A stretch of DNA of 64,000 bases from a bacterium (GTDB lineage Bacteria > Bacillota > Clostridia > Oscillospirales > Oscillospiraceae). The DNA lies in NCBI GenBank assembly GCA_963617275.1, contig CAVENX010000012.1, positions 13,985 to 77,984 on the forward strand, given 5' to 3'. Shown here piece by piece: positions 1-3,000 of the stretch (within the stretch, counting starts at the first letter, position 1; the number at the start of each line of letters is the position of its first letter). The position numbers are program-made.

Positions 1-3000
1 GGAGGCGATACTTAACTACACGACTCTTGAGCGCCGCGGCGGAATGAGCCTTGTGAAAATCGAGCTTGTCACAGGGCGCACGCACCAGATACGCTGTCAG
101 TTCGCCTCACGCGGCTATCCCCTGCTCGGCGAAAGAAAATACAACACTGCAGAGGACGCCTGCGAGATCGCGCTGCTGTCCCACGCGCTCGGTTTCCGTC
201 ACCCGAAAACCGGAGAACGTCTTGTATTCCGCCTCCCCCCGCCCGCAGAATACCCGTGGGACTGCTTTGAGTGCGCCGCGGCGCTTGGGGCAGAATAAAA
301 ACAGCGGGGCGCCCGACACCTGCTTTCGGACACCCCGCATAGGGAAAAAGAGGGTATGTAAATTTAATCGGCGGTAAGGACACACCGTGTCCGTTTCCGC
401 CGCCGGCCGATCACGCGGACATTCTCAGATCGGAAGCAGTCTCCGTCACATCAATGACCGGCTCGGTGTTCGTGCCGAGAACCTCGCCCGTTGCGGCGTC
501 AACATAAAACTCATATCTCAGCATGATCGTGCTGACTATCAGGCGGTAGCAGCCGTTTTCAAGGCAAACATACTCGCAGCAGTAGTTGCTGTCAGTGATG
601 CCGACGGAAGTAAGGGCGTTATTAAGAGCGGTCTTGGAATTTATATTTTTCATGGTATTTCTCCTTATCAGTTATCAGTTCAATTTGTTTTCTCTGGCTT
701 CTTGTTTATCGCTTTCGTATAATAGATGCGCGGCGCGGCGATAAGTTACAGAAAACCTCAAAAAAATTTTTCAGGACATTTCCCCTGCTGCCTTTGGAAC
801 CTGACGCGGCATTTCCAAGTCATATAGCTAATCCCTTTAACCGAAAATTTACGGGTGCGCAATAGACATTTCATCTGAAATAATGTATAATGGCAACAGT
901 AAATATGAGGATGTGATATTAATGAAAAGCAAATTGATAGCGGTTTTATTTGTTATTGTTTTTGTCCTTCTTATTGCAGTCGTGTTCTCGCTGCTCAACG
1001 ACGGCACATCTACTGACGACATCAGCAGCTTCCGTATCAAGTCTACCGAAACCGACGGCGGATTGGTAAACAACATAGAAACGCCCGCTCCGACGCCAGC
1101 GCCGGAAGTCACATGGCTTCCCAATCCTACCGAAGAGCCTGTTCCCGTCACTCCCGAACCTACACCGGCTCCCACGCCCGTGCCCACCCCCACTCCCCAG
1201 CCGGTGAACACCGTGCTTGGCAGCGGCACGTTTGAATCCAACTCCGGCACATGGCTCAACATGACCGCCGATTGGACCGCCACCACCGTGAGCGACACGC
1301 AGGTTGACATCACTTTCAAGGTAAACGCGAAATCCTACGCGCTGGATTATACCGGCTTCCCCTCCGCGATACACATTTCCGTGGGTGAACAGTATGAAAG
1401 TTGCGCGGCGAACAACATAAGCTACAGCGACAACACGCTCGCTCTTAATGAGCTGGCATCCTACACGATGTCCGTTTCCCTGCCCGCAGGCAGTTCAAAC
1501 ACCTACAATGTGCAGGTCGTATGGGACTTCAACGGCGTCTACGGCAGTCCGACAATGGGTCCGGTGCAGATAACCTCCCTTGAGTGCGGCGGCGTGATAA
1601 CACTGGTAAGATAATTTGTTCTCTTTGAAACGGCTTCTTTAAATATAAGTATGCCGCGCAATTCAATATTCGGAAATTAATTCGGCAAAAATCTCCCCAG
1701 CTTGTCAAAAAAGTCCTTTAAGGATTTTTTGACCGCGCTTTCCGCCGAGCATTTTGAAAGAGATCAAAATGCTGTTACCGAAAGCCTTGATATATCAAGG
1801 CTTTCGACGGCGGTTTATCCATTTTGAGGCGGGCCTTGCCCCCTCAAGCTCCCCCGCTGCTCTGGTATCTGACTTTAATACATAGTTCTTTGACAGTCTC
1901 AAAAATCTCCCCTTGAAGGGGAGATTTTTTGTTGACCTTTAGCGTCCGGCTTGTCAAAGAAGTTCTTTGGCAGAAAGGGATGCTGCACTTGCAGGAACAC
2001 GAGCTTTTATATTTTTCGGGAAAGGCGTACAGGGACAGCGATAGGACCTCGGTGCGGAAAAGTTATTGCGTCAGGAAAAAACTGATGATATAATTAATTA
2101 ATTTAACATCCTGTTGATGTAACTATTGACTTTCTCCGGCGTATAAATTATCAGACAGCAGCCTGAGCCTGCAATATATACCGCGCCGAAATGAAAATTT
2201 TTCCGTACCGGAAAGGATGTGCCGCATGGGAAACGACCCGTTTAAAAACCTGAGTATTATGCGTGACTGCGCGTCCCCCGCAATGGTCGCGTTCGATCTG
2301 ACGTCGAATTGCAACCTCAAGTGTGTCCACTGCTTCAACGACAGCGGCACGGATGCGCCAAACACAGACCTTACCCCCGCGCAGAAGCTTGATATCGCAC
2401 GGCAGATAGCTGCGCTGCATCCGCTCAACGTGTGCTTATGCGGCGGGGAAACGCTATGCTGCCCGAACCTGTTTGAAATTATCGGCATCCTTGCGCCCGA
2501 CGTCGGCAAAATCAGTATGGTGTCAAACGGCTATCTCATGACGGAGGATATGGCAAAACGCCTTGTTGACAGCGGGGTCAGTCTTATACAGATCAGCGTT
2601 GACGGCGCTTATGCATGGCAGCATGACAGCTTCCGCGGCGTTCCAGGCTCTTTCGAACGGGCAACGGCTGCGCTTGATAACATCCGCAGAGCAGGCGTGC
2701 AGAGGATGGACGTATCTCTTGTCCCGAATAAGCTGAATTTCAATACGCTGGATGAATATTTCAGCTTGTGCTGCGCCAAGGGCGTTCACGAGATACGCAT
2801 GATGCCGTTCCTGCCCTCAGGCCGCGGAAGAAGCGTCGGACGCAACCTGATGCTGTCCGAGAGCGAGTATTTTTGCCTGTGCAGAGACATTGAGCGCCTG
2901 AGCGCCGAATACCGGGGACGGCTTGAGGCGCAGTGGGGCGACCCGATAGACCATATGCGCAGAATGCCGCTGAATGCGAAGAACGGCCTTCATACATATG

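Follow-up and report, generated by a model that had tools for sequence, protein, structure and literature searches.

What kind of sequence occurs four times within 64 kb of an ordinary bacterial chromosome, encodes no protein, and varies from copy to copy in ways that keep its hairpins paired? The question is raised by a stretch of 64,000 nucleotides, called the window here, from an uncultured gut member of the Oscillospiraceae (GenBank assembly GCA_963617275.1, contig CAVENX010000012.1, positions 13,985 to 77,984 of the forward strand). A preliminary description of this stretch left two possibilities side by side: a nonautonomous element resembling a MITE (miniature inverted-repeat transposable element) or a dispersed structured small RNA or 3′-untranslated-region (3′-UTR) module. 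The analysis reported here shows that a noncoding element bounded by terminal inverted repeats (TIRs) inserts next to GC-rich stem-loops and leaves the entire stem-loop (17 to 45 bp) duplicated and that its insertions are polymorphic between strains, with copies that recombine and decay into remnants and solo palindromes. We consider it probable that the repeats form a superfamily of nonautonomous DNA transposons (MITEs) of uncultured human-gut Oscillospiraceae that insert at terminator hairpins and duplicate the complete stem-loop through a structure-targeting DDE transposase acting in trans.

The four full copies of this ~204-bp repeat all lie on the + strand of the window, at 1698-1900 (copy 1, 5′-CAGCTTGTC...GACAGTCTC-3′, 157.8 bits), 11876-12079 (copy 2, the reference, 160.8 bits), 28741-28944 (copy 3), and 43481-43682 (copy 4), an average of about one per 16 kb. 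The other copies match copy 2 at 83 to 91% without gaps and at 90.5 to 91.6% by BLAST, which agrees with the initial estimate of four ~200-bp copies sharing about nine of ten positions; the ortholog of copy 2 in the metagenome-assembled genome (MAG) UMGS1192 (L003:7639-7840; loci outside the window are cited by L numbers) is 98.5% identical. The termini, first seen as imperfect inverted repeats, are the 16-bp TIRs CAGCTTGTCAAAAAAG and CAGACTGTCAAAAAAG, which agree at 14 of 16 positions and stay conserved across an alignment of 70 copies, and 19-nt end motifs occur four to five times in the window against a chance expectation of 0.01 to 0.02. In consensus form, the ends read 5′-CAGCTTGTCAAAAAAG ... 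CTTTTTTGACAG(T/A)CTG-3′. Because the commonest duplication offsets put one conserved base (C on the 5′ side, G on the 3′ side) inside the element, we take its true ends to be 5′-CAG...CTG-3′. The absence of a consistent open reading frame (ORF) extends to the whole family: across sub-families, no frame stays open and no start is conserved. The remark that the repeat always lies in + orientation holds within the window only (4/4, p about 0.125), and elsewhere copies on one contig are opposed as often as parallel. A replication-strand orientation bias, considered on account of the four + copies, was not seen on other contigs, and the GC skew of the window was uninformative.

Duplicated target stem-loops and insertion polymorphism

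The key feature of these loci, overlooked in the preliminary description, is that their flanks are duplicated. A terminator stem-loop of ~29 to 30 bp is repeated directly on either side of copy 2, as is another around copy 3, and copy 1 has a 13-bp duplication. At copy 2, the stem-loop GAGATGTGCGG-AACGAAAA(A)-CCGCACATCTC stands on both sides: the upstream copy (11846-11876, +, GAGATGTGCGG-AACGAAAAA-CCGCACATCTC) has an A-tract before it and no T-tract after it, and the downstream copy (12079-12108, +) is followed by TTTTT, with the T-tract reaching 12113, and is the only + strand terminator called in the region by a terminator scan. The stem-loops flanking copy 3 are 29 nt long; the upstream one (28713-28741, +, AAGCAGCCGG-TAACGATA-CCCGCCGCTTC) has an imperfect left arm, and the downstream one (28945-28973, +, AAGCGGCGGG-TAACGATA-CCCGCCGCTTC, then TTTAT) has a left arm that is perfectly complementary. 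At copy 1, the upstream target-site duplication (TSD; 1686-1698, +, CAAAAATCTCCCC) comprises 13 nt of the left hairpin arm only, and its downstream duplicate (1900-1912, +, with the hairpin region extending to 1930) runs into a complete bidirectional terminator hairpin, AAAAATCTCCCC-TTGAA-GGGGAGATTTTTT, whose 1906-1922 portion is predicted to be terminator-like on both strands. The flanks of copy 4 show no duplication. Thus, the “functional U-tract terminator” of the preliminary description is, downstream of copies 1 to 3, no separate feature but one half of the duplicated target.

Does the same hold beyond the window? A profile search (nhmmer) of gut Oscillospiraceae MAGs and metagenomes gave 173 matches, 104 of them full length, and the 99 with 80-nt flanks on both sides reduce to 80 distinct insertion sites. 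Upstream and downstream flanks were compared by gapped alignment anchored at the junctions, with 394 re-paired flanks as the control. A junction-anchored duplication of at least 7 nt is present at 45 of the 80 sites, compared with 6 of the 394 controls, and only 2 of the 394 controls reach 13 nt or more. At 38 sites, the duplication spans 17 to 45 nt, and 37 of these duplications fold as stem-loops (−11 to −30 kcal/mol among those listed); at 7 more, it is AT-rich and spans 7 to 16 nt (e.g., AAAATAAAAAC and AATTATATTT), with 7 to 13 bp at AT-rich sites that have no hairpin. Different hairpins lie on the two sides at 11 sites, a hairpin lies on one side only at 14, and neither hairpin nor duplication is seen at 10. 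A hairpin of −12 kcal/mol or below lies directly upstream of the element at 71% of sites, compared with 15% of distal control positions. The duplicated hairpins mostly have a T-rich 3′ flank or an A-rich 5′ flank, and, judged by these sequences, the target stem-loops are mostly predicted intrinsic terminators.

The site of copy 3 has been caught in three states. In L154, whose GT2 protein (a glycosyltransferase) is 100% identical to that encoded at 29049-29999 (− strand) of the window, a single hairpin occupies the site, and the intergenic region is 232 nt shorter than in the window, which corresponds to the MITE plus one hairpin copy. In L087, the site holds one hairpin and a 44-nt remnant of the 5′ end of the element. 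The hairpin of the empty site (L154:1848-2040) has the same sequence as the upstream window copy, imperfect left arm included; in the downstream window copy, that arm is perfected. Two histories would fit this pattern: the element may have been lost when the duplicated hairpins recombined, or an arm may have undergone hairpin-templated correction once the element had inserted.

Recombination between copies accounts for the missing duplication at copy 4, which lies at a breakpoint: L155 shares the left flank and the MITE, and its right flank is another terminator hairpin followed by a dNK gene rather than malQ. Similarly, L128 joins the left flank of L066 to the right flank of L092, and L059 and L068 show the same recombinant pattern. 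Copy 1 is fixed, occupying this one site in nine further assemblies, and it is where many short-read contigs stop. No empty site was obtained for copies 1, 2, and 4, copy 1 being filled in every assembly found and copy 4 being recombinant. In total, the TIRs, the lack of an ORF, the TSDs, the orthologous empty site, the insertion polymorphism, the recombinants, and the presence of >100 copies in related genomes identify the element as a MITE and give good support to the first of the two original options, for which copy number and empty sites had been proposed as checks.

Architecture, covariation, and loop inversion

Folding recovers every helix of the preliminary description, namely, the 5′ hairpin, two hairpins enclosed by the CCGCCG/CGGCGG helix, and TTGAGG...CCTCAA. 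On the + strand of copy 2, the 5′ hairpin P1 (11882-11912, GTCAAAAAAGTCC-loop-GGACTTTTTTGAC) consists of the left TIR and an internal inverted copy of it, around a loop that flips between copies; in some sub-families, P1 is a perfect TIR palindrome. The closing helix P2 (11921-11926 with 11987-11992) encloses hairpins P3 (11927-11952) and P4 (11958-11985). Then comes the invariant core (11993-12041), made up of a linker, the P5 hairpin (12003-12026, TTGAGG-(C/T)-GGGC-CTT-GCCC-CCTCAA), and a C-rich tail, GCTCCCC(C/T)GCTGCTC. The differences first noticed between the window copies are all present: cgaAag/cttTcg versus cgaGag/ctCtcg, gCc/gGc versus gTc/gAc (copy 3), the A-run and the T-run both shortened from 6 to 5 in copy 4, and a G·U wobble in hairpin 2 of copy 3.

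Across the 70 aligned copies, which are nonidentical, the ends are conserved, the P2-P4 stems are highly variable yet always paired, and the core of ~50 nt is nearly invariant, with the consensus AT(C/T)NNA(T/C)T(T/C)-GAGG(C/T)GGG(C/T)CTTGCCCCCTC(A/G)AGCTCCCC(C/T)GC. Sub-families differ completely in stem sequence (P4 of A versus A2 versus B), and P3 is longer in B. The P2-P4 domain (11921-11992 in copy 2) is optional, since mini relatives do without it (L106:8089-8224 and L150, plus a tandem pair in the siphovirus contig L165). The core is constrained in sequence, never flips, and is common to these mini-elements. A 24-nt core pattern occurs at 29 places in MAGs of uncultured gut Oscillospiraceae/Clostridiales, 14 of them in MAG UMGS1192, and a second, independent core pattern occurs at at least 120 loci in human-gut metagenomes.

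The core was also examined as a possible gene or known RNA. Five of its seven variable sites fall on third codon positions in one frame, but coding is ruled out by stop codons just upstream in several sub-families, by the lack of a conserved start, and by frames that disagree between families. ARAGORN gave nothing in support of an origin from tRNA or tmRNA. The Rfam search proposed in the preliminary description, run with Rfam 15 at gathering thresholds over the whole window, matched no copy of the repeat, and at E ≤ 10, three divergent relatives gave unrelated hairpin-type chance matches with no family in common.

A single copy folds with a minimum free energy of −81.4 kcal/mol (z = −7.2), and its reverse strand folds equally well (z = −7.6). 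For covariation, a MAFFT alignment was unsuitable for RNAalifold, with stems shifted between sub-families, and we used an Infernal covariance model of P2-P5 to which 109 copies (90 of them distinct) aligned at 40 to 163 bits. Standard pairs fill 96.9% of cells, compared with 88.0% in shuffles and 30 to 50% for slid partners. Both sides have changed in 28 of 40 pairs (14.0 ± 1.9 in shuffles), and doubly changed cells number 264 (48.5 in shuffles); of 500 shuffles, none attains the observed value. Almost all of this signal comes from P2, P3, and P4; P5 is nearly invariant.

What produces it? The loops of P1, P3, and P4 repeatedly co-occur with their exact reverse complements, in nine pairs (e.g., CTTACAG x13 and CTGTAAG x4, ATATTAT x12 and ATAATAT x6, and AAAGCGTT x6 and AACGCTTT x3). 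At the copy 1 locus, the P1 loop has flipped in situ between strains, TGTAA versus TTACA (L159-L164, L156-L158, and window 1704-1734). Such flip-flop of palindromes affects ordinary terminators, too: the loop of the copy 3 target terminator reads TAACGATA in the window (28713-28741) and TATCGTTA in L087 (7640-7670). In quasipalindrome mutagenesis, hairpin-templated correction makes the two arms covary without selection. We infer that loop inversion is a palindrome process at the level of DNA and that it can yield “compensatory” changes in the same way, so that P1, P3, and P4 can be regarded as DNA palindromes whose covariation may reflect hairpin-templated correction, selection for foldability, or the two combined. 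Given the loop flips and the random orientation of the element (see below), DNA palindrome dynamics account for the covariation no less well than selection on RNA would. Hence, the statement that differences between copies preserve pairing is borne out across the family, and the covariation is statistically strong; selection on the folded form does not follow from it, with loops that invert to their exact reverse complement.

The core behaves differently from the stems. Excluding one terminal pair, G·U wobbles outnumber A·C wobbles by 54 to 27, counts that do not represent independent events; in P5, the corresponding figures are 15 (U·G) to 2, mainly through a recurrent C-to-T change in several sub-families, and in P4, they are 8 to 8. 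This asymmetry suggests that the core is read as a single strand of + polarity, whether as RNA or as DNA.

Mobilization and alternative explanations

What enzyme would act on such targets? In staphylococci, a member of the IS1182 family, IS1272/TnSha1, chooses terminator stem-loops for their structure and not for their sequence (PMC4923244, PMC5678879), and IS1182 elements are over-represented between convergent genes (PMC9208149). Like the element described here, IS1272/TnSha1 uses stem-loop targets (several of them confirmed terminators), has 16-bp TIRs, and carries extra internal copies of its left end (PMC4923244, PMC5678879). Wan et al. drew a model for IS1272 that includes a pathway b, which predicts duplication of the stem-loop (PMC5678879). 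We posit that a trans-acting transposase would recognize its target by shape, as an extruded cruciform or hairpin; the 3′ ends of the element would be joined at the two 5′ feet of the extruded structure, and gap repair would then copy the whole stem-loop, an outcome equivalent to pathway b. The likeliest candidate for the enzyme is a structure-targeting DDE transposase such as that known from the IS1182 family. ISfinder gives direct repeats of 0 to 60 bp for IS1182 and long, variable ones for the IS1634 group, so other IS1182 members may leave duplications like those seen here. Our best guess for the core is a cis-acting site for mobilization that would be read as a single strand of + polarity.

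Several observations weigh against this proposal. Searches of the window, of ~1.3 Mb of related loci, and of viral contigs, plasmids, and phages turned up neither an autonomous element nor a transposase with these ends, so that the longer partner envisaged in the preliminary description did not materialize and the class of the enzyme is inferred rather than shown. IS1272 removes the stem-loop in part or in full and leaves no TSD, the opposite of the duplication seen here; it is also autonomous (1.9 kb, with a transposase), whereas the present element has 204 bp and no ORF. About 35 of the 80 sites have no clear duplication, which we attribute to recombination and decay, processes demonstrated at a few of them. 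The TSD sometimes ends short of the maximal palindrome, as at copy 2, where it leaves out the A5/T5 extension; the geometry of insertion at the feet of the cruciform is therefore approximate. Finally, the role given to the core is a guess. The core may be a cis-acting signal for mobilization or a passenger in the form of a small functional RNA, and it is the most interesting loose end of the family because elements whose ends differ share it and a phage carries it, too.

The search for the enzyme covered several kinds of candidates. The window genes include no transposase. Repeats of insertion sequence (IS) size shared between loci were all housekeeping genes, and ORFs bracketed by inverted repeats encoded a methyltransferase and a UDP-glucose dehydrogenase. 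TIR motifs outside MITEs, scans of viral sequences with TIR and core, and BLAST against plasmids and phages yielded no partner. The L126 copy that lacks a 3′ end is truncated, and pUSA300HOUMR, considered as a source of an IS1182 transposase, carries IS257 only.

Could the fold itself be the reason for the family? A structured RNA module, either a small RNA or a 3′-UTR element, would have its RNA fold under selection and its mobility as a secondary matter, with the core hairpin and C-rich tail functional, for example, in protein binding or as an anti-Shine-Dalgarno-like sequence. In its favor are the strong covariation and stable fold; the + strand wobble preference in helices that do not flip; the near invariance of the core among sub-families with differing stems and ends, in minis, and in phage; and an insertion geometry that guarantees read-through transcription. 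Against these stands the orientation of the element, which is random relative to flanking genes (16 sense, >E>; 14 antisense, <E<; 20 convergent, >E<; 16 divergent, <E>) and to T-tract polarity (12 versus 9, with 10 ties). Moreover, no internal sigma-70 promoter was found in the element, the reverse strand folds just as well, the wobbles in P4 are strand symmetric, the P2-P4 domain is dispensable in minis, three divergent relatives have no Rfam match, and the P1, P3, and P4 loops flip in situ, which is a DNA process that leaves loop sequence unconstrained. We therefore do not retain the dispersed small RNA or 3′-UTR module as the reason for the family, and we rate selection for a structured RNA as decidedly unlikely. 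Rather unlikely, though worth stating, is an undescribed mode of structure-specific transposition, in which the enzyme would integrate at the feet of extruded terminator cruciforms, a stem-loop of any length would be duplicated, and the core, as a cis-acting single-stranded hairpin signal or a small RNA, would recruit or guide the enzyme and define the superfamily in place of the TIRs. If true, this mode would be a transposon analogue of CRISPR-repeat duplication.

That parallel raises the further question of whether a Cas1-type integrase, casposase-like or an off-target Cas1-Cas2, attacks both borders of the palindrome and thereby duplicates it. The duplicated unit is indeed a whole palindromic stem-loop whose 17 to 45 bp fall in the size range of CRISPR repeats. 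CRISPR Cas1-Cas2 and casposons make staggered attacks on the borders of palindromic repeats and so duplicate the repeat, Cas1-Cas2 goes off target next to inverted repeats capable of forming cruciforms, and casposons have TIRs and TSDs (PMC5137440). However, these systems have a duplication length fixed by the enzyme (14 to 15 bp for casposons) and need a Cas1 gene, whereas here the length varies with each hairpin (7 to 13 bp where there is none), an argument against Cas1. Neither a Cas1 gene nor a CRISPR array turned up in the window or in the other loci inspected, in a search that was not exhaustive, and nothing links the ends of the element to known casposon TIRs; a Cas1-type origin is thus highly improbable. 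We give still less credence to a REP/REPIN-like family spread by a RAYT-type (IS200-like HUH) or other single-strand transposase. The solo palindromes, built from a pair of inverted 16-mers, are reminiscent of REPINs, the copies lie outside genes in association with terminators, and the core hairpin with its + strand wobble bias is compatible with recognition of single-stranded DNA; REP/REPIN sequences are likewise extragenic palindromes near gene ends, and palindromes serve as targets for the REP-targeting elements IS1397 and ISKpn1. REPINs, however, make no TSD and depend on RAYT, and IS1397 inserts in REP loops with a 3- to 4-bp TSD. HUH transposition leaves no target duplication, which makes mobilization by HUH or RAYT enzymes unlikely at an element with 45 of 80 sites duplicated and an empty site in confirmation; no Y1 transposase was seen, RAYT genes not having been searched for specifically.

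How does the proposed transposon compare with small repeats already described? Among them is bcr1 (with related group A repeats of the Bacillus cereus group), also a MITE-like element of Firmicutes, ~155 bp long, noncoding, and polymorphic between strains, with a multihairpin “cruciform-like” fold, compensatory changes, and reported transcription (PMC3184786). Compared by description, bcr1 differs in having 5-bp direct repeats, and neither targeting or duplication of hairpins nor a shared invariant core is reported for it. The Correia/NEMIS, ERIC, and RUP/BOX/SPRITE elements are likewise small, TIR bounded, intergenic, and cotranscribed, with stable RNA hairpins (PMC3184786, PMC10969869), but their TSDs are short and fixed (e.g., TA) or absent, and the reviews report no duplication of whole terminators (PMC3184786, PMC10969869). 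MITEs with multihairpin folds and compensatory changes (bcr1; PMC3184786) and structure-directed insertion at terminators (IS1272) are already known. In the papers and reviews searched (including PMC10969869), we found no description of a MITE that duplicates whole terminator stem-loops or of the element or core reported here.

Relatives, neighboring features, and implications

Solo palindromes with TIR-like arms only occur both in the window and elsewhere. One lies just beyond the copy 1 terminator (1947-1975, +, GGCTTGTCAAAGAAG-TTCTTTGGCAG) and is conserved in L156 and L157; others are at L007 (1869-1914 and 3415-3447), L021 (6632-6672), and L039 (4262-4298). A degenerate relative of uncertain membership at 48908-49066 (+) has a TIR-like 5′ end, CAGCTTGTCAAAGAAG (48908-48923), and a mini-palindrome, GCTCTTGTCAAGACTTTTCGGCAGAAAG (49037-49066), and a TIR-like mini-palindrome at 41891-41930, TCTTGTCAAAGAAT...CCTTTGACAAAT, at the end of the ORF at 41419-41922, may be a further solo relative. 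In L153 (IMG/VR), the region at 10587-12033 is the end of a prophage, where a solo TIR-type palindrome and a GC hairpin come after a tyrosine integrase gene (10587-11723), at the extreme edge of the locus; an attachment site might coincide with the repeat or adjoin it. A phage attachment site was considered as the origin of the element and rejected, as this integrase belongs to a prophage that simply abuts the palindrome.

Other relatives vary inside the element. At three different sites (L020:2606-2845, L080:1725-1935, and L116:9853-10063), a common insertion of ~85 nt sits in the P5 loop (GGGCC, then TGTCTCGCTGCGGCTCGG...CCGCTGCGCTA, then CCCCTCAA); it could be a nested element or an expansion segment, and these variants have evidently spread. 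In L007:401-531, L009:4989-5118, and L106:5275-5405, the 5′ arm of P2 is replaced by CGGCAAC, which pairs with GTTGCCG downstream of P3, an alternative pairing that extends P3 at the cost of P2. The siphovirus contig L165 (IMG/VR) carries its two tandem minis at 4551-4826, each with its own GC hairpin, GGATCTCATTC, and the core, and a third copy of the hairpin follows; these minis are intergenic, in a phage encoding a DUF859 tail protein, and they place the core in phage genomes without the MITE TIRs. L150 (MT838946.1, “UNVERIFIED: Bacteriophage sp.”) was set aside as a phage, since it encodes an ACT-domain protein, a formyltransferase, and a glycosyltransferase/pyruvyl transferase; the record looks like a mislabeled fragment of a bacterial chromosome. 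Some short contigs that bear the element are binned as Bacteroidaceae or Alloprevotella (L020 and L026) or as Butyricicoccaceae (L016). Given the distribution elsewhere, the assignments to Bacteroidota are probably binning errors and not spread across phyla.

The window is otherwise ordinary chromosome, with nrdD, a P-type ATPase gene, a pyrK-like gene, GT2, DUF1893, malQ, murT, and others. Its sole Rfam match is a thiamine pyrophosphate (TPP) riboswitch (RF00059) at 39443-39557 (− strand; 63.4 bits against a gathering score of 54.3), upstream of − strand ORFs at ~38807-39364 and unrelated to the repeat family. Inside an ORF region, at 5578-5725, a periodic repeat of the GCAAACGCC... type occurs in six overlapping copies with a unit of 18 nt (24 nt in one case), probably a low-complexity repetitive protein segment.

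What would insertion by the proposed transposon mean for the genes around it? In the geometry that we propose, insertion would leave the T-tract with the downstream hairpin copy and cut the upstream one off from it, with the mirror image on the other strand. The loss of the T-tract by the upstream copy would move termination to the outer edges: after insertion into a bidirectional terminator, the downstream copy would serve as the + strand terminator and the upstream copy as the − strand terminator. The element would then be transcribed, in either orientation, as a 3′ extension of whichever neighbor reads in, and convergent transcripts would gain ~230 nt of complementary 3′ sequence. Copy 3, between two − strand genes, is hence antisense to local transcripts. 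The earlier proposal that the copies are transcribed as 3′ UTRs is therefore plausible from read-through geometry, but as a by-product of insertion that would apply in either orientation.

The family bears on several wider questions. For the IS1182 family, duplication of a whole stem-loop has been proposed only as a model, and it parallels integration by Cas1. For comparative RNA discovery, the family is a caution that DNA palindromes that flip and correct themselves can give very strong covariation statistics. In addition, the element breaks short-read assemblies and mediates rearrangements between copies, and it thereby affects the quality of MAGs for these taxa. If the proposed geometry is true, each insertion turns one bidirectional terminator into two one-directional terminators ~230 bp apart, and both convergent neighbors transcribe the element, so that their 3′ ends become complementary. 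At the density of the window, approximately one copy per 16 kb, this would amount to a genome-wide rewiring of transcript 3′ ends in abundant uncultured gut bacteria.

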